Assembly: GCA_965649765.1 (NCBI GenBank)
Contig: OZ287755.1
Location: 14,198,001 to 14,262,000, forward strand
Reading direction: 5' to 3'
Source: Bispira polyomma
Taxonomy: Eukaryota
DNA: 64,000 nucleotides
How positions within the stretch are numbered: the stretch's first letter is position 1; every line of letters begins with the position of its first letter. Below, piece after piece: positions 201-64,000 of the stretch. Made by a program: the position numbers and the translations under genes. The notes beneath the pieces were generated by a model. The model made no database searches, had not been told where the DNA came from, and saw only the letters and a list, made by a program, of their open reading frames with translations.

Positions 201-960
201 TTACATGGGGGTCATTTTTACCTGACTGGATTTGCAACCAGTGATGTACCATATGATGTAATATCTGATTCTGAAGAGAGTGGAGTTCCGAGATTCGACC
301 TTGTCAAGACGCTTATTTATGTTGGCGTTGGTGGATGCCAACCTCATAAGGCTACACATTACATTGGAAATATCACCTGTTCCTTGTGCGTCTACTTCCA
401 CTAGATGGCTTTCAAGATTCTGGACGATTGGATCTGCTCTTAAAGTTATCCCTCTCAATGGTCCAGTAGTATCTTTCGAGTTGCCATCTGTTTTTTCGAC
501 TGTGGAGCAGCCTGGAGTTTTCTTGCTTCTACCCATAGTCGTACGTTTGTATTAAAACTGTGTATTAACTTACTTATTAAAAATAAAATAACTTAAATAC
601 TATCACAGTTGAATTCGATTTTTTATTTCTGGGTGTTTACCCTTCAAATGTTGTTCTGAAATGGAGACATACACGCTAATTAAAGGGGACTAATTAATGG
701 TTGGCTAATCAGGTATAGGAGTATAGAAGAAAGAACAAGAAAGGTTTTAACAAGTGTGGTTTTTAAGTGGGTATATGAACTGAGACAGCAGACTCCTGAA
801 TTGGCATGCTGGGCACAGTACCCCAGATCCACTAACCTTGGTGAGACAGGAAACCCAGTAGCAAAGACAGGTAGAACAAGATGGAGAAGTTTATTTATTT
901 ACAACATTTGCAAACCTGTAAACTACAATTGTTACACTGAGAAGGGTTGGAGGGAGTAGA
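201..960 (-). mobile_element. 5' part of a YR (DIRS/Ngaro-like) retrotransposon (element E0): gag N-terminus plus upstream non-coding region
   Basis: ORF 536..201 (MGRSKK...LMRLASTNANINKRLDKVE) resembles the gag of element E3 (MGKTK...LRGLETSNANITRRLQLVE). The outer boundary is approximate and the rest of the element is not seen. Confidence 0.55.
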
Positions 961-2160: not shown

Positions 2161-2589
2161 CAGGACGACTGGCTTCATGCCCATATCACCTGCGTCTGCT
2201 TCTGCTGGTCGTAGGTCTCAGCCACCCAAAAGTTTCAAAAACATTATTAGAGCTGTTTCTTAAATGAAAAAAAAAACAACCCTCACTACAAGAAGCATAC
2301 TGGCCACACAAAAAATTTATCACATATTCACACATAACAAAAACAATACTTGGCCCCTCCCCACAAAAATAAAAATACACTGTTGTATTTTCAACTTGTG
2401 AAAGCCCACCCCAATATATAAGTAGTAAGTAATTTTCTCCCTTAAATAATACTTTGATAAGTAGTTGCCCCTCCCTTAAATGGGGATGGGATGGGGGGGC
2501 CTAAAAGGGCTTATGGCTTCAGGAGGGAGGAAGTTGACTGATATTCTATCCTCTGTTTTAGTTCAGATTGATTGAAGGTCTGTGCATAT

Positions 2590-2790
2590 GAGCTGGGCAC
2601 ATTCCATCTGCCTGTATTGAGCCTCCACCTTCTTCTAGCACTGTGGAATTTTCGGCAAAGACAAGAATTACCCCTGGTATTCATCAATGATTGCCTGACA
2701 CACCTGGGGGACCAACCTGGTTATGGTGGACCTCCCCACTGCAAAGGAGTAGGTGTAGTGAACTGTAGGTCTCCCTAGTGGCCACAGTGG
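2590..2790 (-). pseudogene. Harbinger (HARBI1-like) transposase fragment
   Basis: YSFAVGRSTITRLVPQVCQAIIDEY followed, in another frame, by RWNVP. This is the typical HTH-to-DDE junction of Harbinger transposases. Confidence 0.7.
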
Positions 2791-3499
2791 CTGCTTAAAC
2801 CAGGTGGCCTGCTTCTCGATCTGGCTCTTCCTCATGTGATGACTTTTCCTTGACCTGTATCCTGTGTCTGTTTCTCTTCTTAACATGTCTATCACTTGAA
2901 GGCTTATTAAAGCCACTAAAACTTGAAGTACCCTCATAATCTCAATTACTCTTTGTAGAACCATATTGACAATTAAATCTGTCTGGATTTGAGTAATCAG
3001 CATTTGTCCAGGATTTGTCGGAGTAATTGGCAGGCCTCTCGAGTTATCGTGAACCACGCTGAGTGAATTGGGCTGCCTTCCCCAATTTATCTTAACGATC
3101 GTAAGTAGTATTACCCGGGAGGTCAGGGCAGCCATTTGATTATAATCGTGTGACTAAAATGCTGCTGAGTGCCCCCAATAGCATTATCAGGAGGTTAGCC
3201 CTGATCTAAATGGAACAGCCCCATAAGGCTTTAGTAACGTAACACAAAAAACGATCGCCACTAAACCATGTTAAAGCCTGGACACACCTACACGTGCTGG
3301 AGCTACATGTATGTGATGTTTTAAACTGTTTTGAACATAGTAAAAGGTAATGTCAAAAACGTCTCTCTTTGGTCGGCCGCACAATTGTTACAAACTGTTT
3401 GAAATACTAAATCGAGTAGCTATTAAACCTTCATTTATAATCCAAACTATTTGTATTTCCCAGAAGAGTTTCAACATTCCTTCAAACATTATAAGTAGG

Positions 3500-4930
3500 T
3501 CATACTTGCCATGATTAAAACAGTTAAAGGATACCAATTTCTACACTAAACTAAAAGAGGACCCTACAATAAAGATCTCAGACAAAATCTGTAAAGTTCT
3601 AACAAAAATGAGGAACCTAAAAATGATTGCAAAAAATAATTTAGAGTTCCTTAATATAAGTAACCGCAAAGAAGGACGATTTTACTTATTACCTAAAATG
3701 CACAAAAAATTAGTCCCAGGCAGACCCATATGTAGCTTAATAGAACACCCCACCTGTAACATCAGCAAATTGTTGATGCACACATCAAAGATTATGTACC
3801 CCCAAAAAGTGATATTTTAGAGATACACAGCATTTTATAAGTATGTTATCACTCTACACTAACATACCCAACCATGAAGGCATTTTAGCTGCAGCATCCT
3901 ACCTCAGAAGGGATAGGACCAAAGATCCTATTACACCTTACATACTAGAGCTACTTAAACTACTGCTGCATAGCATGAACTTCAAATTTAATGAGGATCA
4001 TTACCTACAAATAAGAAGGACTGCCATGCTTACAACACTTGCACCTAATTATGCAAACTTATTTATGGATAGGTTTGAAACTGAGGCTCTTGAAAATTGG
4101 CAAATAAAACCACTTATCTGGTTCTGATTCATTGATAACATCTTCATGATCTAGACACATGGGCAGAGTGAATTACAAAAATGTATTCACTACCTCAACA
4201 ACATTCAAGACAAAATTAAATTTACAAGTGAATGTATTACTGAATCCATCAACTTTCTAGACACAACAGTCAAAATAAATAATGACAGATCATTATGCAC
4301 CACACTGTATGAAAAACCTACTGACACACATCTGTACTTACACCATGAGTCTGGACATAATAAACCCTGCCACACCAAGAGCCAACTAGGACAGCTCTTG
4401 AGACTAAGAAGAATCAACCCAAGGAATCCTAATATCTGCAATTTTGTACACAAAAGTTGGAATATTATTGAACACATCCTAGATCGTGCAGATACTTTCG
4501 AAAACAAACCCATTATTGGTTACAGGAGATTACTAAATTTAAGGGAAATGGTGACCAATTCTTTGGTAACATATCCCCCTGAAGCTAAACAAACACGGCC
4601 CATTATGCCTAAACAATGCACCAGACTAGGCAAGTGCACCTACTACCGGCTAATTAAGAAAATTAGTGAGATCCAGTGCAATGTGACACATAAATGCATA
4701 AAACTATTGACCTCCCAAAACACATTACATGTGAATTAAGTGATATTATTTACTAAATCAGATGTACAAAATGCAATAAATACTATGTACAAGAGACAGG
4801 TAGGGCGTTGAGGAAAATCACATAAGAACATAGACTCACAGTGCTCAAACCAAGAGATGACAGAGTGACCCCAGTAAATGTGGAATATAGGAGCTATCAG
4901 TCTCATTGGCATTAATCAATTTATTTAATT
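3500..4930 (+). mobile_element. Degenerate Penelope-like retroelement (RT + GIY-YIG endonuclease)
   Basis: Motifs FYLLPKMHK..VPGRPICS, SLYTNIPN, NFKFNEDHYLQ..TAM...APNYANLFM, FIDNIF, INFLDT, YEKPTDTHLYL. Then C..C..YYV.ETGR (GIY-YIG, ~4760-4810) and a GINQF end. Multiple stops and frameshifts. Confidence 0.8.
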
Positions 4931-9153: not shown

Positions 9154-10183
9154 TAAATCTATATCCCCAACAAAAATCTGTACTGGTTTCCGGCACCAGT
9201 AAACTGCAACAGTGAAGTTCAGCTTATAATATAATATAAAGCTGTTAAGCCAAAGGTAAACTCTAGCTAAAACTAAACAATCCATATCACTGCAAGCCAC
9301 AGCATTTTGGTTGTATTTTCACCTTTTTATTTGGAAGTAAAAGGGGTTTCATACACAAAGGTGTTATATTGATTTTAGGTACCAGCGATGAAAGTATTCA
9401 ATACTTTATCTCCAATGGTGGACAAACACCACTGTTATATGGTATAGCCCTATTAATGAAGACTACCGGACTCCTGGTCTCAGTGAGAACTACAATCAAC
9501 TCGGTTGTTGTAGTTGATGATCCAGAAACGACCTACGAATCCAAAGTGGTAAGTACAAAATAATATTGAGTAATATATGCATTTAAATTTGTAAACACAG
9601 TCAAACCTGTACTAGTGACCATTCCCAAAAAAAGCCACTCCACTTTGAATCCTCCCATGAAGTTTGTTATGCAAATAGGCTGTATAGAAAGACGACTCCT
9701 AAGGTGTGACCAGATATCACCTAAATTATTCGCAACAGCAATATTTGACCAGAAAAGAAGAGGTCACTTCAAAGACATATCACAAGTTTATAGCCTTAAA
9801 ACATTATCTATAATTTATATTTTTCTAATTTTCTCATAGTACTAAGCCCCCAGGTTTTCACCTACAAAAGATGCTGGTAAAAAATAACAATCTGGTAACA
9901 ACTGACCTAAAGATAAGTCATATTTCACACTTTACTGTAAACTTAATTAGTAAGATTGTTTACTGAGCTACAGCCAATCGAATGCGTCCATGGTCGGGAG
10001 TTTCCCACCTTTCCTGTAAATTTGTCATTAATTAATAGGAAACCAAGGTGGAAACAAGTCAAAAATTCTTTATGTTTTTAGGTATTTTAATCTCAATATT
10101 TTAACCGTATGGTTTTGGGGAGAAGTGATTTGCATCATATGTGCGAAAGTTTATACAAAAAAAGTGTGATAAAATTAGTAGTT

Positions 10184-11284
10184 ATGGGACGAGGGAAATA
10201 ACGCCAGCAAACCATGATGGAAACGATGGTTCGCACTGTAGCAAGGTTAAAGAAAGATATGTCTGAGATGAAGAAAAGAAACAGACAGCCAGATACTCGT
10301 ACGCAACACGACACGGGTGAGGGATCTTCTGACCAACAGGACGAAACCAACGACACTCAAGGTAGTAACCCTTTATTAGACTACAATTCACGTCAAACAC
10401 CAGCACAGCCGAAACATGCTCGGCACGCGAACCCTCTCCCCACCTCGTGGAACCAAGATGACTGGAACCAAAGGGCTGATCCATACGGAGCACCACAACA
10501 TGTTGACGACTTTTGGTCGACACAAATTCACCAGAGCAGTGCTTCACGTTGAACACACCCTGCTCCTACTCAACAGTGGTCCAATGATTTGACATGGGAC
10601 ATTCACCCCACACCAGAGGTATTACAACACTCTGCACTAGTCCAGAACGAGGTCAAATTCAGATTGAAACAGTATGAGTCCATGGCAGCAGAGGACATAA
10701 TACAGGGTAAGCTTCATCACAAAAAGCGTTGGGGCGTTTCAACACCTCAGACATGTCTACTAGGGACCCAAACAAAAGCTGTTTAGCTGGTGCCCATAAA
10801 AAACGCCCATCTTATGACAACCTATCAGCAACACAATTTGCATCGGGGCAGATACAGAATATTTTAGAAGTTAAAAACAGTAACGTTGCTAGAGCTATGC
10901 TGAAGCAGTTATCAGACACACTTCGGGATGCTGGCAATATCTCAGGGCTAGTCGCTCGCGCTGCATACGCCAGCAATATGCACGATGTGGAGGAGGGCAG
11001 TCTAGGGTGGGGAGACAAAAACAAATGGAGCCTTAACAGGCTCTCCTACTCGCAAGCGTCCATCTCAACCTCAGCTACTATTACTGTTACAAAATCTCGA
11101 ATGCCATGTCGCCATTATCAAAAGGGGCAATGCTCACAAGAGGGTGACCATGAAAATTCAACTACAATCTTCAAGCACATCTGTGCAAATTGCAATCGTT
11201 TCAACAAAAAGGAAAACACATCCTAAAACCAAATGTTTCAAGTTGCATGGGAAAACGCCGACAGTAGGAACGACCCAACAATAG
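10184..11284 (+). pseudogene. E1 gag (disrupted)
   Basis: MGRGK start. RPSYDNLSATQFASGQ and ARAAYASNMHDVEEGSLGW are shared with the E2/E3 gags. C-terminal CRHYQKGQC..GDH..HICANC..HPKTKC zinc finger. Contains stops and frameshifts. Confidence 0.8.
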
Positions 11285-11447
11285 GACAGTCGACTGCACG
11301 CAGAACCAACTAGTACCAAGGTATCTAAATTCGAACATGAAGTTCATAATAAAAGTCTGGTTAATACAAATAGGGTTAATGATAAAGACAGAAATTTAGG
11401 CAATGACATTCAAAATTATATAGGAACTGATAAGCAATTGTGTAATG

Positions 11448-11665
11448 ATATTAATACTAGCAAGTTTGACTCATTGCAAATGAGTTTCAATGTAAAAAAT
11501 GCTTCAGCTGGTGAACTACCAGAAGAAGAGACTTGGAACTGTGAAACTGTTGATATATTAATACTAGCAAGTTTGACTCATTGCAAATGAGTTTCAATGT
11601 AAAAAATGCTTCAGCTGGTGAACTACCAGAAGAAGAGACTTGGAACTGTGAAACTGTTGATATAT
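11448..11665. repeat. 107-bp tandem duplication inside the E1 pol 5' region
   Basis: ttaatactagcaagtttgactc... starts at 11451 and again at 11558. It causes a frameshift. Confidence 0.9.
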
Positions 11666-13532
11666 ATACAAGTAGTGCAATTAGTTATGATGGTTATCAA
11701 TTGTATTATTTAAGATTTAAGAATAGTGATTTAATGGATGGTGTGTATAAAATGTTTTGTAATAATGTATTTCAGATATATTGTGATAAAACAGAATATT
11801 CAGTGACAAATATATGGCCACTGAATTTCTATGTACAAACAACAGTACAAGTACAAGCAGTTGCACAAACTTTTCCAAACACACATTCACACAAAAACAA
11901 AACAGAACACATTAGTCACACTACGACAAAACTGGAAACACACAATACTACATAGACATCATAGATAAGATATGTCAAAACATAGACAAGGACATAGACA
12001 ATACAGATACAGCCACAAGTCACAGCACAATTAGGAATGATAGTCAACAGACTTATTTGAGCTGTTTTCCTACATCACAACACGAAGAATCCACATCTCA
12101 TACAAAGAGTTCTATGATAATGACTTATGACAATACTGACTGTGTAGTATCCAATTTATCTCAACATACAAGAGATGACAGTGAGGACGTATCCAGTAGT
12201 GACACAATCAGAGACTGTGATGACAGAGATTATGGTTTTATCTCAAATAAGAGTTTGTCTTTTAGTTTCACAGGCCCAAGTAGGAAACCTGTGGACATAG
12301 GGGATTTTAGTACAGCTGATTGCATAAAACTGACAGGTCAGCCAAATTATCTAAAGGCCAGGATTCCTTTGGTTTCTGGCTTGAACATAGACATGTGAAA
12401 ATACTACTTAAGTGACTACCATGATAAACTCCTACTCCAGTACTTAAAGTACGGGTTTCCCATAGGTTCAAATGAGAGAGATAGATTAAATAACACACAG
12501 ATAAAAAACCATTTCTCAGCGTTAAGGTTTCCCACAGACATTGACAAATACTTTGACAAAGAAGTGGGGAAGGGCACAATAATAGGCCCAGTTTCTGACC
12601 TTAAGGGTACTGAAGTACATTGTTCACCAATGTTAACTAGACCGAAATATGACGGAAATAGGCGATTAATTTTAAACCTTTCATACCCCAATGGGGCCTC
12701 GGTAAACGATTGCACAATTAAAGATACATATGACAGCACAGAGTTTGTTCTAAAGCTTCCTACTATTGATCAAATTGTTGATCATATTAAAACAATAGGC
12801 CCGAGTGCAAGAATTGCGAAAGTGGACATAGCACATGCATTTAGGAACGTACACATAGACCCTACGATTGCCTCAAACTGGAAAAATCAGTATTATATTA
12901 ATTTAACCCTAGCGTTCGGCTTAACACAGGGAACTAGTATCTTTATGAGAACATCTGACGCAGTAACGTACATAATGAAAAAAAACAAAAAAACTTAGGT
13001 CTTTAACTACATAGACAATTTTAGATTATAGAAACTGAAGATAGGGCTACCTTAGCATATAATTTCCTTCAAGAATTGATGCATCAGCTAGGTCTTCCAA
13101 TAAACAAAAATAAACTTGTTGCACCAAGTACTAGAGTGACATGTATGGGCATCACGATAGATGTGTGTCAAAAAACCCTCAGTATAGACCAGGATAAACT
13201 CAATTCGATTTATGAATCAGTTATAGAATTCGAGAATTTAGAAAAAGTTAAAAAAAGCAAATACCAATCTCTACTCAGGAAATTATTATACATAAATAGA
13301 TGCATTAAACCAGCTAGGATTTTTATGGAATGCCACAAGTTTAAAGACAATTGAGTTAAAAAAATTCAAACGAGATTTGAATTGGTTTAAAAGGTTGTTA
13401 AAACAATTCAATGGAACTAAGAAATATGATAATGACACGGTTAATCATTTTGTCCCCATGCAAGTGGATGCTTGCTTGCAGGGCATAAGCGGTGTATCAG
13501 GAAGCCATGTATTTACAGCATTGCTTCCCCCT

Positions 13533-13788
13533 GAGGCCTCGGTGGCCTAGTGCTTAGCAAGCATTGCGCTTCACAATCACTGGTCTCTCACCTCTGGGCG
13601 GCGTGAGTTCGAATCCCGTCGTTGCCTATGTGGGAAAGGTGGTAGTTCCTTACTCTGGGCCGCTGGTTTCTCTGCAGAACCTTGACAGACTGTATGCAGT
13701 GTTTCCTCCAGCATTTCCAGCTACCCGTCCCAATATAACCTACTAAAAGGTACTAGAGTGGACATTAAATATCCATATTCAAATTCAA
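13533..13788 (+). mobile_element. tRNA-derived SINE inserted in E1 RNase H
   Basis: A box ggtggcctagtg, B box gagttcgaatccc, (attcaa)n tail. TSD attgcttccccct at 13520-13532 and 13789-13801. Confidence 0.9.
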
Positions 13789-14188
13789 ATTGCTTCCCCC
13801 TTGTATTAGGCAGAACTTATCTATAGTTCATTTCGAAATGCTTAGTGTATTAGTTGGTATTTGTTTATGGATTGACCAATTCAAAAATAAGTCAGTTCAT
13901 ATACAGTCTGACAACGCAGCTGTCGTTTCTGTCATGCAGTCGTCTAAGTCAAGAGATTCATATTTGAGCACTGGTCTGAGAAATTTATGGCTCATTTGTG
14001 CTGAAAATAACGTTAATGTGGAAATTACACATATTGAGGGAAAAAAGAATGTGATTGCAGATAATTTGTCCAGGTGGCATGACTTGGGTACTTATAGTTC
14101 TAGCATAAAAAATGACATGAGGAATAACTTCATTATGGATGAAGTCAAGGCAGACTTATTTACAATGGACAATGACATATAATTTCAG

Positions 14189-15172
14189 GTAATCCACTAG
14201 CAGTGAGATCTCTGATATCTGACGCCATGACAAAGATACAGGACAGCCAAAGACCAAGAACTCAGAAACAATATTCTCAACAATTTAGATTATATTTCTA
14301 GCTTTTGTGCTATACAACAATTTACAAGAAGTTTTCTCTTTTGCCACATTATTGGCTTTCATGGAATACCTTCATCAATGCAACATTTCAAATAAAGTGA
14401 TTAACAATTATTTGTCAGCAATAAGGCACTCGTGTAAGTTGCTCAACATAAATAACACACAACTCTATGATGACAGAATTTCTATGTACCAAAAATCACT
14501 GGCCATAAATTCGAATTTTTCTCCTAAACCCGAAGGGGTACTGGACATTGTCCAACTTCAACAGATTTCTAAATTATGTGAAACTCTAGTTTTTCCAGAA
14601 CTTTATAGGACAGGACAGCAATATTATTTTCTGTTTTAGGGTTTTTGAGAATCTCGAATCTTACTCCCACCAGTGGGGGAAAATTTGACCCCACTCTTCA
14701 CCTCACATGAGTTGATGTATTATTTGCTGAACCTGGGATTCATCTGGTGTTAAAATGGTCCAAAACGAATCAGGACAGAACTAAAGTTAATGTAATCCAG
14801 CTCCCGTGGTTGAAAAATAAATGGCTTTGTCCAGTAACTACAGCAAGAAGTTTGTTAAAAAAATACCCTCTGCCTACACTAGCCCCTTTACTAGCTCACC
14901 CGTCCTATAAAGGAAAATGTATTTCGGATTCAAAATTAAGAGAAGCCTTAAGATCCCTTGTACTTAAAGTGGGTCTAGTACCACAAGCACACACATTTCA
15001 CTGTTTAAGAAGGTCGGGGGCTTCACTAGCTTTTAATGCAAAAGTGAAATTACAGCATATACAGAAACACGGGTGCTGGAGGTCGGACGCCATTTGGCAT
15101 TACTTAGAGTCGACATCCCATGCTTCTTCTATTATCCCCACAACCTTTGCTGCCATCATTTCCCCTTCTTAG
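14189..15172 (+). pseudogene. E1 tyrosine recombinase (frameshifted)
   Basis: N-terminal ..QRPRTQKQY..F. Catalytic motifs GFLRISNL, LKWSKT, LCPV, FHCLRRSGA, HGCWRSDAIWHY. Confidence 0.88.
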
Positions 15173-15581
15173 TTGTTTGGTTTTGGCAGTAATAAAAAAT
15201 TAACTATATTTTAATTTTTCATGTACAGATGTATATAAACTTACCATGTAATAAAATACTCCAAATTGTTAGAATCTTTTTGTCCACGTCTTTGACCTAC
15301 ACATAACCTTAAATTTTAAGAGACTGTGTATGTCACTGCAGGGCAAGAGGCATGGCAAGTCATTCGGTAAAATTTCACACTTTACTGTAAACTTAATTAG
15401 CAAGATTGTTTACTGAGCTACAGCCAATCGAATGCATCCATGGTCGGGAGTTTCCCGCCTTTCCTGTAAATTTGTCATTAATTAATAAGAAACCAAGGTG
15501 GAAACAAGTAAAAAATTCTCCCAAACCCTCCTCCCTTAAAGACTTGTAAATAAAGGTGAAATTATAACATTGATACTGGTT

Positions 15582-15762
15582 TTCGAACTTAACGGATGAT
15601 GGGTCCGTTTGCAGACCCGTGTAAGGGCTGATCCACTCCTCCATAAACTTGCCTCCAGCGTGGCTGCTAGAGGAATTCGGAACTCTGCGGGGGTGGATCA
15701 GCTTTTGCTAGGCGAGTTGGTGCAGCAGGCTCTGTGAATGGACTCACAGCGTTGAGATCGAA
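15582..15762 (+). other. Predicted multi-stem structured RNA/ssDNA element in the E1 3' region
   Basis: Complementary segments 15582-15594/15750-15762, 15601-15605/15614-15618, 15623-15639/15690-15706, 15652-15659/15666-15673 and 15732-15737/15744-15749. Function unknown. Confidence 0.55.
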
Positions 15763-18700
15763 TTCCTATAATTTAATGTAACACACAACTACTGTAAGTT
15801 GCCATTATACGTCATTACAATCATTACGGTTAAAACATTTTAAGAGATACCATAGTAATGATATTAAGTATTTTAATGTATTTTTACTGTTAAAAACATT
15901 AATAGAATTATAAATACATTGTTATTATATATTTTTGTAATTGTTAATGGTTTACTTTATGCCCAAGGGGTTTACTTGTCACATATACTTTTACGTTTAA
16001 TTTTTACACTTACTTTTATTTTATTCTTTTAGTATGTGTTTCACCATACAGGTGTATGGCAGTAATAAAAAATTAATTATATTTTAATTTTTCATGTACA
16101 GATGTGTTTAAACTTACATGTAATAAAATACTCCAAATTGTTAGAATCTTTTTGTCCTCGTCTTTGACCTACACATAACCTTAAATTTTAAGAGACTGTG
16201 TAGAATGTAAAACAAAACACATTGTAAACACTCCAGTTTTCTAATAGGCCATCTTAAATGTTTTAAGCCATGCATAAATTTCCGTATTACCTGGCATAAC
16301 CTAGACTTGTCATCATCATTTTTGCAAACAGAAATGCCAGTGAGGAACTCAGTCAAATTGGTTAGATATTTGCTCTTCTATGATGACATGTATTACAAAT
16401 AAGGTAAAGTGTTAAAAAACCCTCCAGAAATGGTAGTTGCAAAAATATACATGTAAAGGTTATGTATTAGTTAAATCCCAACAACCCTGGACTTTATTTG
16501 GGTTTAAATAAAACAGAGCCCAATGCAACCAGATAATTCCGCAGTGTTAAGAGTTTCACAGATGTAGATCCCACTTCTAATTTGTTTTTTTTCTTAACTT
16601 TTTGATAATACCTTTATTTTAACTACAACTGCCAAATTATGCCATTGACTAGAGATTTCAAATAACCATTCCGTTATTCACCATGTCAGCTTTGTGTCAG
16701 TCTTAGTTAATTCTAATTGTGGCTGCAGTAACTTTGACTGAAATAAATTATAGTTACAATATATGGTCGCATAGTTTTAGTATTATATATATGGTACATT
16801 TGGGTTTAACAGGTACATATTAGATGCTCGAGATATCTGTGCTGTAAACTACCAACCCTTAGCATGTCCACTGCAGACATTCCCACATGCAAACTGGAGA
16901 AGATATTCTAACCAACAGGGTCCAGAGATTACAGATCCCCCCTCCCCCTTGTTGACTTGGCAGGTGTAAAGAGACATGTATTATATTAGATATAATACTC
17001 AAACATAAACTAATCTATATATTTTAGTCACTCTCAGAACCTAGTGACTATAATGAGTACATATTTGGGGCATCCAACCAACCCCTTTATCCTAAGTACT
17101 CTGAAGGCATACTGGACAAATTCCTCTTTTGGCCTGAAGATGCAGCTTTCATCAAATCTGTATGCTACAGTTATTTGACAGGTACAGAAACCTTCCCTAG
17201 TTACATATTTATTCTGGCATCTCCTTAGATACTACCACTTTCCGTTAAAGGTCTTTTTGAAACTTCAATATGAAATCAATAAATGCATCGTAGAATCCAC
17301 TATAATTTAATTATATTTTATTACATTCGAAGAAATACAAAAACAACACCATTTTATTGATACTTACTGGCTTATTTTGTTATAAAATTTAATCATACAC
17401 GGCACAGTGTAGCTTTATTGTATTGTATTGCATTTAACCCACCTTAATGATTGATGCAAAACATCATGTAAAGGCTAAATGCAGAATCAATTAACCAACC
17501 AAGTATTGAAAAAATACATTTATCACAGAGGTTTTACCATTAAATAACATGTCATTTCACTTTGAATATAGTGGACCCCTTTGAAGGGGGAGAGGTCCTA
17601 GATTGGCCTAAATTTACCATGGCATCTTTACATTGTCCAAGAATTTTATCTTCCAAGTTACTATTGTGACCTACCAGGGGTTTGAACCGGGGACCTAATT
17701 AGCACACAAACTCCAACTACTAATGAGCCGCTACGTCACACTGAAAACCCTTGTTTGCATTAGAGCTTAGACATATGCTAGAATGAAGACTAAACACCAC
17801 AAAATATTTTTTGACTAATTTGGACAGGATATTTTGAGAAATTTTCTGTTTCTTTCAGCTGGATGGTATTTTCAAAAAAACCTGTCGTTTAGTTAAGTAA
17901 GCAGATACATACCCGAAAGCTAACACAACATCATGACTACTTTACTCTCCTGGCAAGTTTGGATAATAAATGTTTAACTGTATTTACTTTGGAAAAAGTT
18001 TATTTCTCCCTATTATTTCTGTACATTCTAGGTATCCTCTGATGTGTTTTTCTTTGTAGATATTCAAACTATTCTACCCAAATGGGACAAACAATCTATC
18101 CACCAATGGATCTGTTTGCCCTGATAGATCAGTCCACTGATACTTGCCTACAGCTAAGAAACCTTGAGTTGACAACTTTCTCCCCTCATCCTGCGACCAG
18201 TTTGGGCCCATAATTCAATTTGTGCTACCAGACGGCATGTGGAGATGACATTCCAGAGCAATTTACCATAACCTTGACCTTTTTAGAGACATTGGAGTGC
18301 AACTATTACATCCAACTTGGCATCAGTAAACTGGTGAGCCCCCTCAGAGCTTATGGAGTGTCTATGAAAATGTGCTTCTTCCTGAACTCAAACAGTGTAG
18401 GCAATTTCTCTGTGAATACCTACAGTTGTAATGGGGTGCCTAAAGCTGTGTACCTGTCCTATCCAACCTCTGAACTGTGTGAAATAGAGTTTAATACTTA
18501 AAGTGAACAAATATACATAATTTATGCTTACATTGATTAATAATTGTTACAGGTTTTAAGTCACTGCGAACACACTATATATAGGTCATATTCCATTTTT
18601 ACTGGTGTGGGAAAGCAGTTCATACTAGTTGAACAACATTCTGCACTGTAAACCACTGGGTATCAGCAAGTACCTGACAACTTCCCCACATAAACCTTTC

Positions 18701-29300: not shown

Positions 29301-29983
29301 TGAATCGCAATGCTTACAAACTTCTAGTATCTGAATATGTTACATATTTTCATTCTCCTAATCTTCATTCTATTGTTATACCAAAATGCCTTTCCCATTT
29401 TATCTGAACAAAATCTTTGTTCTCCTGGCAAGTTTGGATAATAAATGTTCAACTGTGTTTACTTTGGAAAAATGTTATTTCTCCCTCTTATTCCTGTACA
29501 TTCTGAGTTTCCTCTGATGTGTTTTTCTTTGTAGATATTCAAACTATTCTTCCCAGGATTGGACAGACAATCTTTCCACAAATAGACCCATTGGCCTTGA
29601 TAGATCAGTCCACTGATACTTGCTTACAACTAAGAAACCTGGACATAACAACTTTCTCCCGTCATCCTGCGGAGAACGATCGGTTTGGGCCCATGATTCA
29701 GTTTGAGCTGCCAGACGGCATGTTAGATGACATTCCAAAGCAATTTACCATAACCTTGACCTTTTTGGGGACATTGGAGTGCAACTATTACATCCAACTT
29801 GGCATCAGTAATCCGGTGAACCCCCTCAGAGCTTATGGAGTGTCTATGAAAATGTGCTACTTCCTAAACTCAAACAGTGTAGGCAATTTCTCTGTGAATA
29901 GCTACAGTTGTAATGGGGTGCCTAAAGCTGTGTACCTGTCCTATCCAACCTCCGAACTGTGTGAAATAGAGTTTAATACTTAA
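23373..29983 (+). pseudogene. Copy 2 of the secreted LamG/pentraxin-like gene (pseudogene)
   Basis: Exons 23373-23460 and 23900-24127 are intact. Exon 3 (25891-26025) has an internal deletion. Exon 4 (~26826) has acceptor AG>GG and a deleted donor. Exons 27764-27923 and 29535-29983 are open. Confidence 0.85.
29086..29313 (-). mobile_element. 5'-truncated tRNA-derived SINE
   Basis: Reverse-complement copy lacking the A box. TSD ttacaaacttctagt at 29071-29085 and 29314-29328. Empty site in unit 3 (~42115). Confidence 0.9.
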
Positions 29984-44016: not shown

Positions 44017-45084
44017 ATGCCGACTAAAGCATTGAATAAAACTAATGGAAAGGACAAAAGTAAAATAGACAATAAAGTGGTTTCTGAGCACAGTATGGCT
44101 ACTGCTGATATACAGGGAAATGAGGACACGGGAGGTTTAGGGCAAGAAACTATTTCTGTTAATAATAAACCAGACGAACTTCTGCAAGTAGTGAAAGCCA
44201 TGGGTGGTCAATTACAAAGTCAAGAGGAGAGACTACGTAAACAGGAGGAGCGTGTTAGTGTGAATGAACTTTCACTAGTACCATCAGCTGAGAGTTCGCC
44301 CAAGGCTGCAGAAGGTGTACGTCACAAGTCTGTGACTAGAGTTGAAACAGAAGTACCAGCCAAACTGCCCTCATTTGAAGCCCTTCGTGCCAATTCCCGT
44401 GTGCAAGCTGAAGTGCAGAAGCCTATCCATGAGTATGAGAACACTTTCAGGCTACCTGAGGACAAAGGTAAAGCAAATTCAAATATTAAGTCTGGTTGGT
44501 TTCGTGCCGGCATAGCTAAAGTTACTGTTCCCTTGAGTTGGCCCCAAGATTACTGTTCAGTTACTACTGGGGCTAAGCAGCCTACCTATGATGAAATGAG
44601 TAGTGAGCAATGGTTTCAGGGTATTTTATACTGTATTATAGAACAGAAAGACAATAAGATTAGGGACACAATGTTGCATTACTATAGGTTATTGATGCAA
44701 GATGCTGTTGAGTTGTCGGTTAATACAGCTAGAAGAGCTCATGCAGCTGTACTTCAGGATATGGAAAAGGGAAATATTACCTGGACTCGCCCAGATTTGA
44801 TAGAGAAAGTAAAAAATTGAAATACTCAAAGAACTGTTCAAAATCCTAGGCAAAGTGTGGCCAGTAGCAATCAGAGGTGTATGCGTTATAATAAGGGTCA
44901 TTGTAGGCAGGAGGGAGATCATACCCACAATGGCATCTTGTATCAGCATTGTTGTTCATATTGCTTGAAAGAAACACAGAAAAAGTATGAACACCCTCTC
45001 GTTAAATGTATGAGACAGAAAAATGCAGGTGGTAGCCTTAAGGGTGACACTAACAGTCACAAGACTAAAGAACAGAGAGTTTAA
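44017..45084 (+). pseudogene. E2 gag with one premature TGA (44818-44820)
   Basis: LPSFEALR, QPTYDEMSSEQWFQG, ARRAHAAVLQDMEKGNITW, and CMRYNKGHC..GDH..HCCSYC..HPLVKC. Both parts are in the same frame. Confidence 0.85.
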
Positions 45085-45372
45085 CAGATTTATATCCGTA
45101 CTGCTAAGTACTGCAGAAGGTAGAGTTACTTTAAACAGCAGCTACAATTCTAAAGTACACGGTTTACACGGGTTTAGGTTAAATCCCTTAGCTATAACTT
45201 TGGCCCAGGTAATAAAAACCATGGAAGTTATGTTAAGGTTAATGAATGTGTTACTAATAACGTAGTTACTAGTGTTGTAAATCAGAATACAAATAGTATA
45301 GTAGTTAACATCAGTAGTGGTGGGAAATCTTTTTCCCCTATAGGGAATATTAATCCAGTACATAAGCCTTAC

Positions 45373-48000
45373 GTGGGACGTTTGGTGGACTGTAAACGTG
45401 TTTGTGAAAATGTCAATATTACACAAACATGTAATGTCAATATACGTTCATATAATAGTTCTGATGAGTATTTTAGTATTTATGACATGTCAGATAAACA
45501 AGTAGTCACATGGGAAAGTGACTGTACTAAAGATACGAATATATTAATAATGAACAGTATAGGTCAAAAGTGTATTAAATTAAATCATAATGTGCTTCAT
45601 TGGAATAGCACGGCTTACCACATAAATCATAAGGGTTTTAAGTTACCAGAACATGACACTTGGGAGAACTTGGACGAAACAAATCATAATGTCCTCGATC
45701 TCTCGGGGTGCTTGGGTAATAAACAGACTACAGGTGATAATGGTGATGAATATACGTGTGAAGACGTGAAAAATCATGATGCCCTCGGTATGTATACACG
45801 TGTATATAATAACAAGGATGCATATCATAATGGTCTGGACTCACGTAATAGTAGTGAATATGTATGTCAAGACGTGAAAAATCATAATGCCCTCGGTATG
45901 TATGCACGTATATATAATGATGGGGATGCATATCATAATGGGCTGAAGTCACGTAAGATAAATCATACCGTACCGTTTATTAACGGGTGGGACTGGGACG
46001 GGGGAAACCATAATATCCTAAATCTCACAGAACGTTATGATAATAATACAGTGAATGGCAATGATAGCACTTATGTAGAAAATTATAGTGTACTCAATGC
46101 TTCCATATGGACTTATAATAGTGTAGAGAACAAAAGTGTAGATCATAAAGGTAATAGCATGGTAAAGGTTGCTATGCAACACCCAATGCACAATACAACT
46201 AGTTCCAATACAGTAGATACTGATAAAATAGTAATACATAGTAATGGAAAAAACATAATGATACTACATGTGACTGTTATGTGCATAATAATGTATCTGA
46301 GAATAAGGTAGATAGTGATAAGTTTTATAATTATCATTTTAGTTTCATGGGCATACAGCAGTATGAATCTTTAGATGCAATAATAAATAACGATATGACC
46401 CACGTACAGGGTGACAAACAGTTGTTGATGAAAGGTAAAGAACAGTATTCAAGGGAGTTTGGATTTCTTCCACACAGCTTACCTCCTGTTATTAGTAAAA
46501 CAGGTTTTCAGGAAATAGACTTTGAACCTAATGCAAAATGGTTATGTGAAATTCATAATTTAGTTAAATCTCATGGCGTTCCTAACTATAAAGGTGCTAG
46601 AGTAAGAGTACCTTCAGGACTTACTGTTATGGCTTGGCGGACACTGCTTAAAGGCTATGATCTAAAAATTTTTGGTGAATACATAGAATTTGGGTTTCCC
46701 TTGAATGTAGATTATTCAATATTTCAACAAAATACTGAAATGGTTAATCATAATTCGGCTTTACTAAATCCAGTGGGAGTTTCAAAATATTTTCAAGTAG
46801 AATCAAGTAAACAGGCTATGATTGGTCCTTTGGAAAGTTCGCCTTTTAGTAAAACACATTAATCTCCATTAATGGCTCGGGATAAACCCGATGGTGGGGT
46901 AAGAGTTATAGTAGATATGTCATGGCCAATTGGTCAAAGTGTTAACAGCTGTGTGGCTGCTGAAGTGTATGGTGATATACCTTTTACTTTAACTTATCCG
47001 ACACTAGATCAGGTGGTAGAAAAAATTAAACAAGTAGGTCCTGACGCCTTGTTATATAAGATCGATTTGGAACGGGCGTTCCGTAATTTACGTATAGATC
47101 CGTTGGATTATCCATTATTGGGATTAAAATGGGATAATAAGGTATACATTGACGTTGGGTTGCCCTTCGGGTTCAAAACGGGAGCGGCGGCATGCCAATT
47201 ATGTACAGATCTTGTTACGTTTACGTTGCGTCAGCCCAACATTTGGTTAATTAACTATTTGGATGATTACGTCGGCATAGCCGAACCAAGTGTTGCAAAT
47301 ACTCATTATAAGGCTTTAACTAGTTTATTGAATTATCTAGGTTTGCCTATAAATCAGAAAAAGATTGAGAAACCTCATGAAGAAATTACATGTCTTGGTA
47401 TAAAAATAAATGCTAAAAAAGGTACACTGACAATTCCCCCAGACAAATTATGTCAGGTAAAAGATTTATGCCTTAAGTGGGCTCTTAAAACTACAGCTAC
47501 CCATAACCAGTTGCAAAAATTGACAGGTAAACTGCTGTATGTCCACCGCTGTGTAAAGCCAGCTAAGATGTTTACAAATTGAATTTTACAGGTATTACGA
47601 AATTCACCCATGAGAGGCCAAATAAATCTTCCACAAAGCTTCTATAAGGATATAACATGGTTCAACCAGTTTTTAGACCAATTTAATGGTGTAGTGGAAA
47701 TGCATGTTAACCCTTCTAAGATATATGAAATGTATGTAGATGCTTCACTTACAATGGTGGGGGCTTATTGGAATAAGCGGGTTTATTCGGCAGATATTCC
47801 TCAGCCTATTAAAAACATTACTTCTATAGTGCACTTGGAAGCGGCTAATATTTTGGTTTCCCTGAAATTGTGGGCTAAAGAATGGGCTAATACTTTAGTC
47901 ACAATATGGTGTGATAACTATGCAGTGGTGAATGCATTCCAGGCTAATAAAATTAGAGATCCTTGGTTGATGGCATGTGTTAGAACAGCATGGCTGTGTT
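45373..48000 (+). pseudogene. E2 pol (Asn/His-rich repeat extension, RT, RNase H)
   Basis: VPNYKGARVRV, FGFP, KIDLERAFRN, GLPFG, NYLDDY, YVDASL, HLEAAN, WCDNYAVV. Stops at ~46862 and ~47582. The RNase H 3' end and YR 5' end are deleted at ~48000. Confidence 0.88.
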
Positions 48001-48845
48001 CCTCACTGTGTCCAGACTGTAGTTTTGTATTTAGAGTTTTTAACTCAAAATGACTTAAAGGTTGTTTTGCTCAGAAACCATTTGTCAATACTTTGCCATT
48101 ACTTTGGCCTCTTTAACTGGCCTAGAGCTGCTCTATCAGCTAGGAAGGTGTTATTATTGGTAAAATCAGTAAAGATAAATTCAAAAATGCACACTAAAGT
48201 AAAAGGTATTATTACATTGCAAATATTACAGAAAATAATTAAAACTACTGAAACATGTTTTAATGGTAAAACTTTTCATGCTTATTTCTGTGTGCCTTTT
48301 TTGTTTTTTTCCGGTTAGCTTATCTCCTTCCTTCTGCTATTGCGCAGTTCGATAAGACCAGATATCCAGTAAGGGGTGATGTGATTTGGGGCCCTCCGGG
48401 GTTACATTTAGTGATGACATGTGCTAAGAACATGCAAAGTTCTAGTGAAATTCATGTAGTACAACTACCTGAGCTAAAAGGTTCCCTCTTGTGCCCAGTT
48501 AGGGCGATCAGAGTTTTAATGGACGAAATACCAGGTCATGCTGACCTCCCATTGTTTAGAATTAAAACAAAAAATGGTGTCTCTCCTCTAACAGCTTATA
48601 AAGCTCTTTCTTTTTTGAAAGTGGTTATTGCCAAAGTGGGGTTGAACCCTAGCCATTATACATTTCATGCTTTCAGGCGCAGTGGCGCCACCCTAGCTTC
48701 TGAAAATAATATTGGATTAGACAATATTAAACAGCACGGAAATTGGAAAAGTGAAGCTGTGTGGAAATATTTGAGCTCTACTCCAAAAGTAGCTGCAGTT
48801 GTCCCTTCCACTTTCAAAAAATTAATAGCTATAACTTCTACATAA
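48000..48845 (+). pseudogene. E2 tyrosine recombinase (5'-deleted, frameshifted)
   Basis: LCPVRA, FHAFRRSGAT, HGNWKSEAVWKY. Confidence 0.88.
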
Positions 48846-59335: not shown

Positions 59336-60102
59336 GTAAAGAAACCCTCCCTAGTTACATATTCATTCTGGCATCTCCTTGGATATTACCACCTTCCGTT
59401 AAAAGTCATTTTGAGACTTGAATATGATAATCATAAATGCGCCTTAGAATCCACTAGTTTTTGACTTGATTAGATTAAATTCGAAGAAACACAAAAGCAA
59501 CACCATTTTATTGATGATGGTTTGTTATAGCTAAATATTCAAGTGAAAGAAGTAATGTAATAAAAGTAAAACCACAAGCATATATCATAAAATTATATAG
59601 CTCAAGAAAAGAAATACTAACAGGCTCATTTTGTTATAAAATTTAATTATACACAGTACTGTGGAGCTTTATTGTTTTGTATTTCATTTTAACCCACCTT
59701 ATTGATTGATGCAAAACATCTTGTGAAGTGCAAAATCAAAATCAATTAACCAGTCAAATAGTATAAAAACATTAATCAGGAAGGTTTGCATAGCAAGTCC
59801 ACCCCAGGGGACTGCTAGATCAGTCCAACCTCCTCTTTTATCACACTACTTTAATCCCTAGCGAATGCAATGGCATCATCCAACTTTCTGTCCATCTGGG
59901 CCTCGTCCAATCACAGCATTAGCTATTAGTGACCCCTAAGCTAGGATAGCTATCCTCCATATTGAATTTGTGTTTTCACCTGTGAACAGGACATTTAGAA
60001 AAAACTGAAATTTTAACCACGTATTTACACTGAATTGGTTTTATTTATATTTTATTCTTTTATTAACTGATGTGGTACGGGAACTAGTGATTGTTGTGTG
60101 AA

Positions 60103-61332
60103 ATGGGGAAAACAAAAGCAACTCCCGTGTTAAGCAGCAAGAAATGGACGACAAGGACAACTTCAACTAGCACAGCCAGAAAAAGGGGTACTGGTCAGGT
60201 AACTACTACAAATAATCACGATCAATCAGAAATACATAGAACAGTCATTGCCGACACCGCGTGTCCTAGTATTGATTCTCAGTTATTGACCAGTTCAAAT
60301 GGATCATCTAGCCAAGCCAGGCTGTCATCTCAGGCCGTACCCCAGTCACAAGTCGAGTCACAAAGCATGTCCGAGGTTCTTTCAATCCTGCGTGGTCTGG
60401 AGACCTCCAACGCTAACATAACCCGGCGATTGCAACTCGTAGAGGACAATCAGACAGTTACACCTGCTAATTCTCCATTACACACCATGAGGGATGGTAC
60501 GGTGGTCCAACAGAGACACGAGGGCTATTCGTTACCTCTTCCCCCTCCCAGGTACAACGGGGTAGCACAGCCGCTGGCTCAACCTATGATGCAACCACCA
60601 ACAGGTCAGGGTTACAACACAGATGGCATTGTCCCCAGTCTCGATGCGTTAAGACCTTTTCCAAACGTGCAGGCGGCCGTTACCAGGCAGCTGGCTGACT
60701 ACGAAGCCTTGGCCCAGAGGGGTCTAGTCCAGGGTAAGCACTCAATCAGGCAGAAGTCTGGTCGTTATAACTCAGATATTACTTTAGCTGATCCCAAACT
60801 CAGATGGTCTAACGAAGGTTGGGGTGGGGGATCGACCCGTCGAAGGCCAGTCTTTAACGACCTCACGTTGCGGCAGTGGGCGGCTGGCCAGCTGGCCAAC
60901 TCGCTACAAGTAAGTGATCCGGCAACAATGAAAGCTATGGTGAACCAAGTGGTACACGCACTACGGGATGCAGCCACAGTTCCGTGGCCTGCTGTCAGGA
61001 CAGCCTGGGCTGTCAGTATGCATGAGATCGAGGAAGGCAGGCTGTCCTGGCAGGACAACACTCAGTGGGCACTGAATCGCATCAGTGCCTCCCAGATGGC
61101 TATGGTAGGCAACAACGGCAGTAACTTGGCTAACGGGGCTTCTTCAGAAAGTAAATCCATCTGTAAGCTGTTTAATAATGGCAAGTGTACTCACAAGGCA
61201 GATCATGGCAATTATCGTCATGTATGCTGGTATTGTAATAAGACATTAGGAAAGGACGCGTCGCACCCAGAATTCAAATGCTTTAAAGCGAATGTAAGTA
61301 AGCAGCCAGACAGACAACAAGGTAACATCTAG
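60103..61332 (+). CDS. E3 gag (intact) with C-terminal CCCH/CCHC-type zinc finger
   Basis: Open ORF from MGKTK. Motifs IVPSLDALR, RPVFNDLTLRQWAAGQ, WPAVRTAWAVSMHEIEEGRLSW, CKLFNNGKC..DH..HVCWYC..HPEFKC. Confidence 0.85.
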   Translation: MGKTKATPVLSSKKWTTRTTSTSTARKRGTGQVTTTNNHDQSEIHRTVIADTACPSIDSQLLTSSNGSSSQARLSSQAVPQSQVESQSMSEVLSILRGLETSNANITRRLQLVEDNQTVTPANSPLHTMRDGTVVQQRHEGYSLPLPPPRYNGVAQPLAQPMMQPPTGQGYNTDGIVPSLDALRPFPNVQAAVTRQLADYEALAQRGLVQGKHSIRQKSGRYNSDITLADPKLRWSNEGWGGGSTRRRPVFNDLTLRQWAAGQLANSLQVSDPATMKAMVNQVVHALRDAATVPWPAVRTAWAVSMHEIEEGRLSWQDNTQWALNRISASQMAMVGNNGSNLANGASSESKSICKLFNNGKCTHKADHGNYRHVCWYCNKTLGKDASHPEFKCFKANVSKQPDRQQGNI

Positions 61333-62376
61333 GACCATGATTCACAACCAGTTGGACGAACATTAGGTAGTGATAAGGGTAATTCAGTGATGAATGGTAA
61401 CATAATAACATAATATATTTGTAAAAGAGTTTAATATAAAGGACGAAAACAGTGAATTAGGTTGTTGGGACAGATGCATGTCTGAAATTAACACAAATGG
61501 GCAAAGTTCCAATAGTAATGATTGTCAGCATATGGTAATGTCAGATAGTACAAGTTTTGTCAATGATGTATTCAACACTGATGTTAATGTGAACTTTGTT
61601 GATAATGATGTCTTTAATAATATTGCAGTTTCAGTGGAAATTACCAGTATGAAACCAAGAATGTAAATGAATGTATTCAATTTCAGAGCAGGACCCAGTC
61701 GGGTCACCATAGATGGGACAGTAGCACTGAGGGCTGCATTTCAAATGGGAGCAATCACTATGCTAATTTACCAGTTTGTAACAAAGAGACACACACGTGT
61801 CAGGTATCAGTTACCAATTGGAAAACTTTTTGTGGGGAAATTCAAAACTTGGCCCCAATTGCTTACATTAGGGATAGGGATGGAAAATTCTCAGGTTATT
61901 TCCACATGTTTTATGATGTGATTGCTGCCAGGTGTGTATATGCTCGTGTTGAATTTCCACCTAGCCAAAACCTTTGTATTATTCAAACCTTTCAAACCAT
62001 AGTCCAGGTTCAGGCTGTTTCTTTAAATACTACCAGTTATACTAATGTGGAAACTCATCACCAGGCTGTGGCCAAGCAAGCCGCTGATACATTTTATTAT
62101 TTCGAAAGAGATAATGCCTGTTTCAAGCTGTTGGGTTTTGATTATACTGAATACATGACCAGGTTAGTAGATGCACTTAATAGTGACAGCGAAGATGAAA
62201 CACTTGACAATTGCCATGAGTCAGACAATTGTGCAGACTTGCTAAATCTAAGTACACAAAAATCAAGTAAGGCTGTAAACAGCCTGATTTGTGATAAAAT
62301 ATACATGAACTCGTCGAGCAACGAATTCACCCAAATGGTTGATAGTGTTCAAGCAAACAAAGATTTGTACAAATAA

Positions 62377-64000
62377 ATTAAGGACTTTAATGACCCCGAG
62401 AAAACCATGGGTTTCTTAGCACTTTCCTCAACAGCATTCACATTCACAGGTCCTGACAAACCTTTTAGGAAAATTGAAACAGTAGAAGACATGCTGCAAG
62501 TGGCTTCTGTTATCAGAGACACTGCACTTCCCAATTATAGACAAGCAAGGGTTCCCCTGGTGTCAGGACTTAATCCAGATGCATGGGATGAAGTTTTCCA
62601 AGATTATCCTGACCAGTTGCTGTGTCAGTATATTAGATTCGGTTTTCCTCTTTCTCTCACCAATCCAAAAATGCTTAACAATGCCTCTGTCACCAATCAT
62701 CATTCTGCCCTCCAACATACAAGTAGAGTAAGAGAATATCTGGTTAAAGAAAGTAATAAGGGTGCCATGTTGGGCCCAGTGAAGGAGGTTAGCTCCTCAC
62801 ATTATCATTGTTCACCACTTCTCACACGTCCCAAGGACATTACTAGTCGTAGGGTAATTCTTAACCTCTCATACCCACAAGGCAATTCGCTTAATGAGAA
62901 TGTGGATAAGAATTTATTTGACGGAAAAAAATTTATTCTGAAATTTCCTACAATCGATGATATTACTGCGATCAAAGTCACAGATGATCCGGTATTGTTT
63001 AAAATCGACGTAGCTCGCGCTTTCCGTAACTTGCGTGTAGATCCTGTCGACGCTGTAAAATTAGGAATCCAGTTTGAAAAGGGTAGTTACATAGATCCTG
63101 CGGTAGCGTTTGGCTGGATTCATGGCAGTGCTGCATTCCAACGCTGCTCTGATGCAATAGCGTCATATATGCGCAAAAAAGGTTTCAATATGTTCTGCTA
63201 CATCGACGATTACATTTGCGTCTCGAATAGAGCAGAGGCTCATAGGGGTTTTCAGATTTTGACCAAACTGCTAGACTATTTAGGTCTCCCCATGAATGCC
63301 AATAAACGCACCCCACCTAGTACTAGCATTACTTGTTTGGGCATTAACATTGACACTGCCGCTGGTACTATTAGCATTCAGCATGAAAAAATAGAAGAGA
63401 TTCTTGAATGTGTGTGTGACGTGTTTAACAGGCACTTCATAACGCGCAGTCGTTTCCAGTCCCTCTTAGGGAAACTTCTGTATGTGCACAAATGCATCAA
63501 GCCGGCACGCACTTTTATTAATAGATTGCTTCACACGCTTAGAAACAACGAGGATAAGAAGAAATTTGCTATTTCTCAAGACATGCGGAACGATTTAGCG
63601 TGGTTCAAGCGGTTCTTACAGACATTTAACGGAGTAACTTACATTGACCCTCCTATTATTCAAAACATGAGTGAGTTACATTTAGACGCTTGCCTTACCG
63701 GTTTAGGAGGCGTGTGGAAAGATGAGGTGTATGCTACACCATATTTCAATGTTTATGGCAGAGAGTTGACAATAGTTCACTTAGAGATGCTGAATATAAT
63801 TCTCGCGTTGCGTGTATGGGCGTTAAAGTGGGCGCATCAACGGATTTTGTTTCACTGTGACAACATGGCCGTAGTACTGGTTGTGAATTCACAAAAAACT
63901 AAGGATGACTTTCTGGCCTCATGTTTGAGGAATATCTGGCTGCTAGCAGCCACACATGACATCACAATTGACATACAACACATTCCAGGGAAAAACAATG
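62377..64000 (+). CDS. E3 pol RT + RNase H (open to the window end; absent from the ORF track because it has no stop)
   Basis: Read codon by codon with no stop in 62377-64000: LPNYRQARVPL, RFGFP, HCSPLLTRPK, KIDVARAFRN, AFGW, CYIDDY, HLDACLTGLGG, HLEMLN, HCDNMAVV, HIPGKNN. In frame with ORF 61849..62376 across a single TAA. Confidence 0.9.
   Translation, partial: MKDFNDPEKTMGFLALSSTAFTFTGPDKPFRKIETVEDMLQVASVIRDTALPNYRQARVPLVSGLNPDAWDEVFQDYPDQLLCQYIRFGFPLSLTNPKMLNNASVTNHHSALQHTSRVREYLVKESNKGAMLGPVKEVSSSHYHCSPLLTRPKDITSRRVILNLSYPQGNSLNENVDKNLFDGKKFILKFPTIDDITAIKVTDDPVLFKIDVARAFRNLRVDPVDAVKLGIQFEKGSYIDPAVAFGWIHGSAAFQRCSDAIASYMRKKGFNMFCYIDDYICVSNRAEAHRGFQILTKLLDYLGLPMNANKRTPPSTSITCLGINIDTAAGTISIQHEKIEEILECVCDVFNRHFITRSRFQSLLGKLLYVHKCIKPARTFINRLLHTLRNNEDKKKFAISQDMRNDLAWFKRFLQTFNGVTYIDPPIIQNMSELHLDACLTGLGGVWKDEVYATPYFNVYGRELTIVHLEMLNIILALRVWALKWAHQRILFHCDNMAVVLVVNSQKTKDDFLASCLRNIWLLAATHDITIDIQHIPGKNN

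Follow-up and report, generated by a model that had tools for sequence, protein, structure and literature searches.

A predicted spliced Gag-recombinase messenger RNA in Ngaro-type retrotransposons of Bispira polyomma

Splicing that removes gag or gag-pol, and by which a downstream open reading frame (ORF) is reached, is known for the env messenger RNA (mRNA) of retroviruses and the pol mRNA of foamy viruses, in which translation of these ORFs mostly relies on a start of their own or on a few leader codons. In the plant Ty1/Copia element EVD, a conserved alternative splice makes one transcript serve as genome and give a subgenomic mRNA, the spliced RNA ending early and encoding Gag only (available passages of PMC5580714). 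Among the retrotransposons carrying a tyrosine recombinase (YR), the Ngaro elements, of the order DIRS, are defined by the gene order gag, reverse transcriptase (RT)/RNase H and YR, by split direct repeats and by the absence of a methyltransferase (available passages of PMC4157794, PMC6681497, PMC13465315 and PMC3783388). The Ngaro YR is described there as an ORF of its own, either in frame or frameshifted, and nothing is said on its mode of expression; more generally, these passages do not address how the third ORF of YR retrotransposons is expressed, and the words 'intron' and 'splic' are absent from the available text of PMC3783388. Here we analyse a stretch of 64,000 nucleotides of the Bispira polyomma genome (the window, C8:14198001-14262000; genome 1.035 Gb, 75 contigs), where three decayed elements, E1, E2 and E3, each hold a gag, an RT/RNase H and a YR gene. 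Our data suggest, with a probability that we put at about 0.87, that YR is produced from a spliced subgenomic mRNA in which the N-terminal 140-270 residues of Gag are predicted to be fused to the whole recombinase, which would explain the expression of a gene that has no conserved start codon.

By structural definitions, E1-E3 are Ngaro-type YR retrotransposons since they combine this gene order, split direct repeats in E1 and E3, and the lack of a methyltransferase; the assignment is structural, the RT/RNase H tree having been built from these elements alone, with no named references in it. In pol, RT matches PF00078 (E 1e-11) and RNase H matches PF13456 (E 1e-7). YR lies 3' of pol on the same strand and matches PF02899 above the cut-off; its PF00589 match is weak (E 3e-4 to 0.03, below the cut-off), and the R...HxxR...W/Y pattern is seen in the alignment. 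The repeats are arranged as A1-ORFs-B1-A2-spacer-B2 in E1 and E3. PAT-like elements have the same repeat layout and gene order and differ by a methyltransferase domain that follows RNase H (available passages of PMC4157794); here pol ends about 35 codons past the last RNase H motif, no methyltransferase domain was found with Pfam, and a PAT-like identity was ruled out. A DIRS1-like identity, marked by terminal repeats that are inverted and by a complementary region inside the element, was also ruled out: the terminal repeats found are direct, not inverted, and the 25 pairs listed out of 32 include no inverted one that bounds an element. The separation of A2 and B2 (approximately 540-875 nt) sets these elements apart from Ngaro as described in the available passages; this spacer (L001 5985-6860; window 15520-16056) shows conservation from copy to copy and, in E3, has a G+C-rich part.

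In each of the three elements, the codon of the Gly next after a conserved helix of Gag is split behind its first nucleotide by a donor-like site, with the sequences CAGG/GTAAGC in E1, AAAG/GTAAAG in E2 and CAGG/GTAAGC in E3 (the slash marks the predicted splice point). An earlier note, made from the window alone, had placed these donors at 10707, 44468 and 60734, in phase 1 at a single gag position, and the E1 acceptor just past the RNase H stop; all these coordinates hold, the E1 pol stop (14180-14182) being followed by TTTCAG (14183-14188) and by an exon that opens at 14189 in the YR frame. The note had also supposed that the E2 acceptor was lost in a deletion and that the E3 acceptor lay past the window edge. 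Both suppositions were borne out: 395 nt are missing from E2 at 47997 relative to the copy L033, and the acceptor ACAG/GT is present in 10 of 10 E2 relatives, approximately 70 nt past the pol stop; in the E3 copy L001, the pol stop (4629-4631) is followed by TTTCAG, with an exon from L001 4638 (window-equivalent 64138) in the same phase as in E1. The acceptor CAG is kept at 19 of the 20 loci of the E3 family, window copy included, and the remaining counts for close relatives are given in Table 1. Three metagenome loci, with YR identities of 39-47%, all have the acceptor, and the donor is present in both of those that include gag.

To follow the sites across families, the sample at the codon-test stage comprised 140 genomic and 4 metagenome loci, of which 134 rows with a YR N-terminus fell into 45 groups at 80% DNA identity, merged by hand to 38 clusters (YR identities 31-97%, median 47%, among 28 representatives). 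Four rows were excluded before counting, namely the copy L116, a window row that was mis-anchored, and two rows in which the gag belonged to a different element. G/GT is found at the aligned donor column in 30 of the 31 families with a mappable gag, the miss being L066, which is frameshifted at that column. The codon bias proposed at this position is marked: with one Gly-bearing copy per family, the donor Gly is encoded by GGT in 30/30 cases vs 50/219 for the other gag Gly codons, and the conserved KSGR Gly, approximately 10 codons on, is GGT in 12/27 (Fisher p 8e-7, an overstated value because the families are kin). The 'GK' read at the donor in the earlier note stands for its Gly; its Lys does not, the next codon being AAG (23), AAA (3), ATG (2) or AAT (2), that is Lys, Met or Asn, and always starting with AA or AT (30/30).

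On the acceptor side, 36 of 37 families have a phase-1 YAG at a distance of 20 or 21 codons upstream of the YR motif RPxT (one copy per family, 8 indel-bearing loci being set aside by hand). The codon preceding it is TCA (12), GTA (10), ACA (5), TTA (4), GCA (4) or CTA (1), so that the residue may be Ser, Val, Thr, Leu or Ala while the nucleotides are always ..YA/G. The pol stop 6 nt before the acceptor AG is TAA or TGA in 28 of the 34 clusters listed, never TAG. When all copies are counted, the donor is present in 95/100 and the acceptor in 117/130. The telling feature of the acceptor is this near-invariance with a free amino acid, since a phase-1 AG alone is not rare. These data show that the donor and acceptor nucleotides are conserved against synonymous drift, beyond chance. 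A GT donor with a U1-like context and a YAG acceptor in matching phase are both present, as in a U2 spliceosomal intron, which is the predicted type.

A genomic copy that lacks the predicted intron was found in a sister family of E1. In L116 (C1, element approximately 95308297-95310504), gag exon 1 is joined straight to YR in one frame of 426 codons. Compared with eight relatives, the segment absent from L116 measures 3.06-3.43 kb, starts with GTAAG in 7/8 and ends with TTTCAG in 8/8. The copy is 97-98.6% identical to its six closest relatives (L130-L135) on both sides of the junction; it starts at the exact 5' end of the element and stops at the end of B1, like the unspliced L105, L114 and L120, has no poly(A) tail, and its exon 1 carries a stop upstream. 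About 15 other deletions of at least 100 nt were counted in 36 copies, and none of them touches the donor or the acceptor. Because an exact GT...AG segment is missing, with exact ends and a joined frame, L116 is likely the product of reverse transcription of a spliced RNA, followed by insertion or by recombination into a copy. Taken together with the conservation of the sites, this sister-family copy supports the proposal, already made in the earlier note, of a Gag-YR protein encoded by a spliced subgenomic mRNA; the findings that could have spoken against it, such as the lack of an acceptor in E3 and other copies or synonymous variation at the donor Gly, did not occur.

Several observations weigh against this reading. 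The family counts are not independent, owing to shared ancestry; L113 has no acceptor at the expected offset; and phase-1 AG is also common at other offsets (21/37 at -9, 13/37 at -2). Further spliced copies were not found, L116 being the single case among 40 scored places and again among 150; in a degenerate pattern scan it was one of six matches, the other five being unspliced, with a sensitivity under half, as the two pattern halves match 66/100 donors and 78/117 acceptors. Another such scan likewise gave L116 alone, and one for the E2 clade gave none. Of 441 homologues, the 120 listed (348 aa at most) contain no gag-YR fusion, and neither do four longer ones, three of which are RT-YR merges; the database homologues look like ORF calls on unspliced DNA, for which the absence of a fusion is expected and proves nothing. 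As for L116 itself, its junction is not bridged in the contig pieces listed from three public runs (538 pieces being outside that list), and the two ends of the junction share AG (2 nt). With a single, unbridged copy and a shared AG, an assembly error or a chance DNA deletion is therefore formally possible, the more so as large deletions are common in these copies (approximately 0.4 per copy), often with microhomology. It would remove the direct evidence and leave that from conservation intact. We judge it the least probable of the explanations considered here: the two sites had already been predicted from other families, and the ends coincide with them to the nucleotide, and by our own rough estimate (at most approximately 1e-6 per deletion for an exact double hit, for a few thousand deletions in the whole genome) fewer than 0.01 such events would be expected. 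The public runs (X1-X3) show an even, repeat-level depth and are apparently DNA, and no donor-to-acceptor joint was present among the 15 of 27 joints listed in them, a result that, like the unbridged L116 junction, does not demonstrate absence. Long YR frames in L125, L126 and L145 were rejected as spliced copies, being pol-YR merges, as were L078 and L094, which have no gag join.

If there were no splicing at all, YR would have to come from the full-length RNA, by a -1 frameshift, a stop-restart at the pol end, an internal ATG or a promoter, the motifs being by-products of the protein sequence. In E1 and E3 the final few codons of pol are indeed overlapped by the YR frame, which is the -1 frame there, pol and YR are merged in 3/124 homologues and in several genomic copies, and a Met stands just before 'ISG/ISD' in several database homologue calls, whose start codons are unverified gene calls. 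An in-frame ATG upstream of the RPxT motif and helix 1 is present in 14 of 37 families, E1's included, and could start nearly the whole YR, which also counts against splicing; the earlier note had missed the E1 one. Across families YR has no conserved start of its own, as these ATGs occupy 11 different offsets, with at most 7 at one, and 23 of 37 families have none before helix 1. In E3 the first in-frame Met is YR codon 79, past the SAM-like PF02899 match (22-78). Taken by itself, the E1 family, with its Met at codon 13, could use an internal start. In the E2 family, a YR-frame stop lies between the pol stop and the acceptor, so that a frameshift from pol into YR is excluded there. Since expression from the full-length RNA would in addition leave unexplained the invariant GGT at the donor, the variation of the residue before the acceptor Gly with unchanged nucleotides, and L116, we consider it very unlikely. 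Slightly less credible still is a splice that is real and purely regulatory, damping the full-length RNA or binding U1 against early polyadenylation, with a functional YR made from a downstream Met or cleaved off its leader. U1-dependent control of a donor is described for EVD (available passages of PMC5580714), exon 1 is poorly conserved and of variable length, and a Met is close to helix 1 in E1-type families; yet the two sites agree in phase wherever a family has both, a need that arises only if the join is translated, most families have no ATG before helix 1, and no protease domain was found in Pol with Pfam.

Under the preferred reading, the production of YR as a spliced Gag-leader fusion, the phase-1 donor inside gag would be spliced to the phase-1 acceptor with which the YR frame opens, and the resulting subgenomic mRNA would encode the Gag leader and the whole recombinase. 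The unspliced RNA would presumably be both the genome and the mRNA from which Gag and Pol are made. The leader could bring YR into the Gag complex by its heptad helix and its conserved helix pair, and L116 would come from a spliced RNA that, once reverse transcribed, took the element's own route of integration or recombination. Exon 1 codes for approximately 140-270 residues, with a variable N-terminus (basic or Cys/His), a heptad helix, a disordered linker and the conserved helix pair. In an AlphaFold model of Gag based on 23 Gags, which has no PDB match, a helix is predicted at 53-83 (pLDDT 71-88) and helices at 147-185; the 31 residues of the former fit the coiled-coil region that YR had been proposed to carry. 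In this model the donor maps to a loop of low confidence (187-193), which separates helices 147-185 from a confidently predicted helical core and finger, so that YR would take the place of the Gag core and finger at a domain boundary. A single-sequence fold of the L116 frame gave a pLDDT of 35. A CxxC..H..C motif was also seen at the Gag N-terminus of L023, L096, L113, L121, L123 and L130; lying within exon 1, it would pass to the recombinase.

Compared with the described systems, this arrangement resembles Ngaro in its gene order, its A1-ORFs-B1-A2-B2 layout and its lack of a methyltransferase, and EVD in the use of a conserved alternative splice. It differs from EVD, as known from the available passages of PMC5580714, in that the Gag core and Pol are skipped and the integrating enzyme is made. 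The likeness to env splicing drawn in the earlier note is a loose one. There and in foamy-virus pol the downstream ORF mostly starts by itself, whereas here the first exon is coding, a Gag domain of 140-270 residues would be joined, and the product would be a recombinase. The proposed mode of expression is apparently an undescribed strategy in a known element type, and its novelty is likely, not proven. No report of spliced YR expression was found in the full-text literature, a search outside which lie Repbase notes, supplements and key older YR papers; papers such as Poulter and Butler 2015 and Goodwin and Poulter 2004 reportedly note introns for some YR elements from algae or fungi.

The real recombinase sequence that is predicted here is needed for purifying or modelling these enzymes. 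In the model, spliced and unspliced RNA would be kept in balance as in retroviruses, so that RNA still containing the intron would have to be exported, and a physical tie of Gag to integration is suggested. In Cafeteria Ngaro elements, the loss of ORF1 goes with a changed insertion preference (available passages of PMC8547959). We tentatively extend the idea, at somewhat less than even odds, to splicing of a Gag leader onto YR as a general and old strategy of animal Ngaro elements, in which the leader would oligomerise with Gag or bind chromatin and load or aim the recombinase. This would provide a mechanism for the link between ORF1 and integration site in Cafeteria, and the YR ORFs of this group would then lack their N-terminal domain in present annotation. 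The spliced-fusion model offers a precise, testable answer for a very large group, a loose first look giving approximately 13,000 YR-like candidate places in this genome.

The expression of Pol appears to differ between clades. In the E1/E3 clade, gag ends with TAG followed by G in 13/13 families with a full gag 3' half (window 11282-11284, 61330-61332), and pol is in frame after the gag stop in six open copies of four families; Pol is likely produced by readthrough of the gag stop, judging from these frames. A CAR-YYA-like word (C-x-x-C-Y-A) is often present 13-18 nt past the gag stop and is a possible readthrough signal; a stable hairpin past the gag stop was not found in 18 families (z -1.7 to +2.2). 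In the E2 clade, gag ends with GTT TAA C in three families (window 45079-45085; L046-L060) and three open copies, all from one family, show pol overlapping the gag end in the +1 frame, so that a +1 shift at the gag stop is likely. A conserved pol acceptor served by the gag donor was not supported, the phase at TAG-G being wrong; a pol acceptor at this place is also disfavoured by a purine-richer upstream sequence (pyrimidine fraction 0.39 vs 0.56, 13 families), with the reserve that the pol N-terminus is unalignable and acceptors there could be missed.

Table 1. Positions of the predicted parts of E1, E2 and E3 in the window
Feature	Position	Strand	Remarks
E1 terminal repeat A1	9922..10069	+	96.6% identity to 15372-15519
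E1 gag 5' part, predicted exon 1	10184..10706	+	copy with deletion and stop
E1 phase-1 splice donor (candidate)	10704..10712	+	intron start 10707; kept in 5/5 reliably mapped relatives (10 fetched)
E1 predicted intron	10707..14188	+	3' half of gag with helical core, Cys/His finger and stop 11282-11284, then pol with RT and RNase H, disrupted in window copy
Dispersed repeat of ~255 nt inside E1 RNase H	13533..13788		not in L021-L023; inverted copies elsewhere in window
E1 pol stop and candidate acceptor TTTCAG	14180..14188	+	CAG in 7/9 mapped relatives
E1 YR exon (predicted), broken in window copy	14189..15172	+	in-frame ATG 13 codons in
E1 repeat B1	15184..15330	+	96.6% identity to 16057-16202
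E1 repeat A2	15372..15519	+	pairs with A1
E1 repeat B2	16057..16202	+	pairs with B1
E2 gag 5' part, predicted exon 1	44017..44467	+	
E2 phase-1 donor (candidate)	44465..44473	+	intron start 44468; GT in 5/6 mapped relatives (10 fetched)
E2 395-nt deletion site	47996..47998	+	RNase H end, pol stop and acceptor lost
E2 YR remnant	47998..48845	+	
E3 repeat A1	59787..60010	+	A2, B1 and B2 past window edge, in L001
E3 gag exon 1 (predicted)	60103..60733	+	210 codons
E3 phase-1 donor (candidate)	60731..60739	+	intron start 60734; GT in 17/19 mapped family loci including window copy
E3 predicted intron	60734..64000	+	gag 3' half, stop 61330-61332, pol; runs on to window-equivalent 64137 (L001 4637)

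Genome-wide, there are approximately 12,000-14,000 loose YR candidates and no fewer than 35 clusters, and the E3 family includes copies 97-99% alike; by this loose candidate count, the expansion of Ngaro in the genome is very large. Many copies (L007, L010, L014, L105, L114, L120, L134) lack A2-B2 and stop precisely where B1 does; some run into a second unit, L008 and L099 being tandem-like, which bears on the model of integration and recombination. In the window, remnants of a further such element lie at 201-551 (-) and 2186-3153 (-), with a gag N-terminus containing a heptad helix and gag/pol-like pieces. Fragments resembling RT at 3515-4739 (+) belong to another retroelement, which we take to be Penelope-like, the part at 4155-4736 having no Pfam match. 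From approximately 6700 to 59500, units of 11-19 kb follow one another in tandem along the window, probably forming a cluster of host genes, in which a 158-codon frame without Pfam match is repeated at 29507-29983 and 42309-42785 and occurs also in L001.

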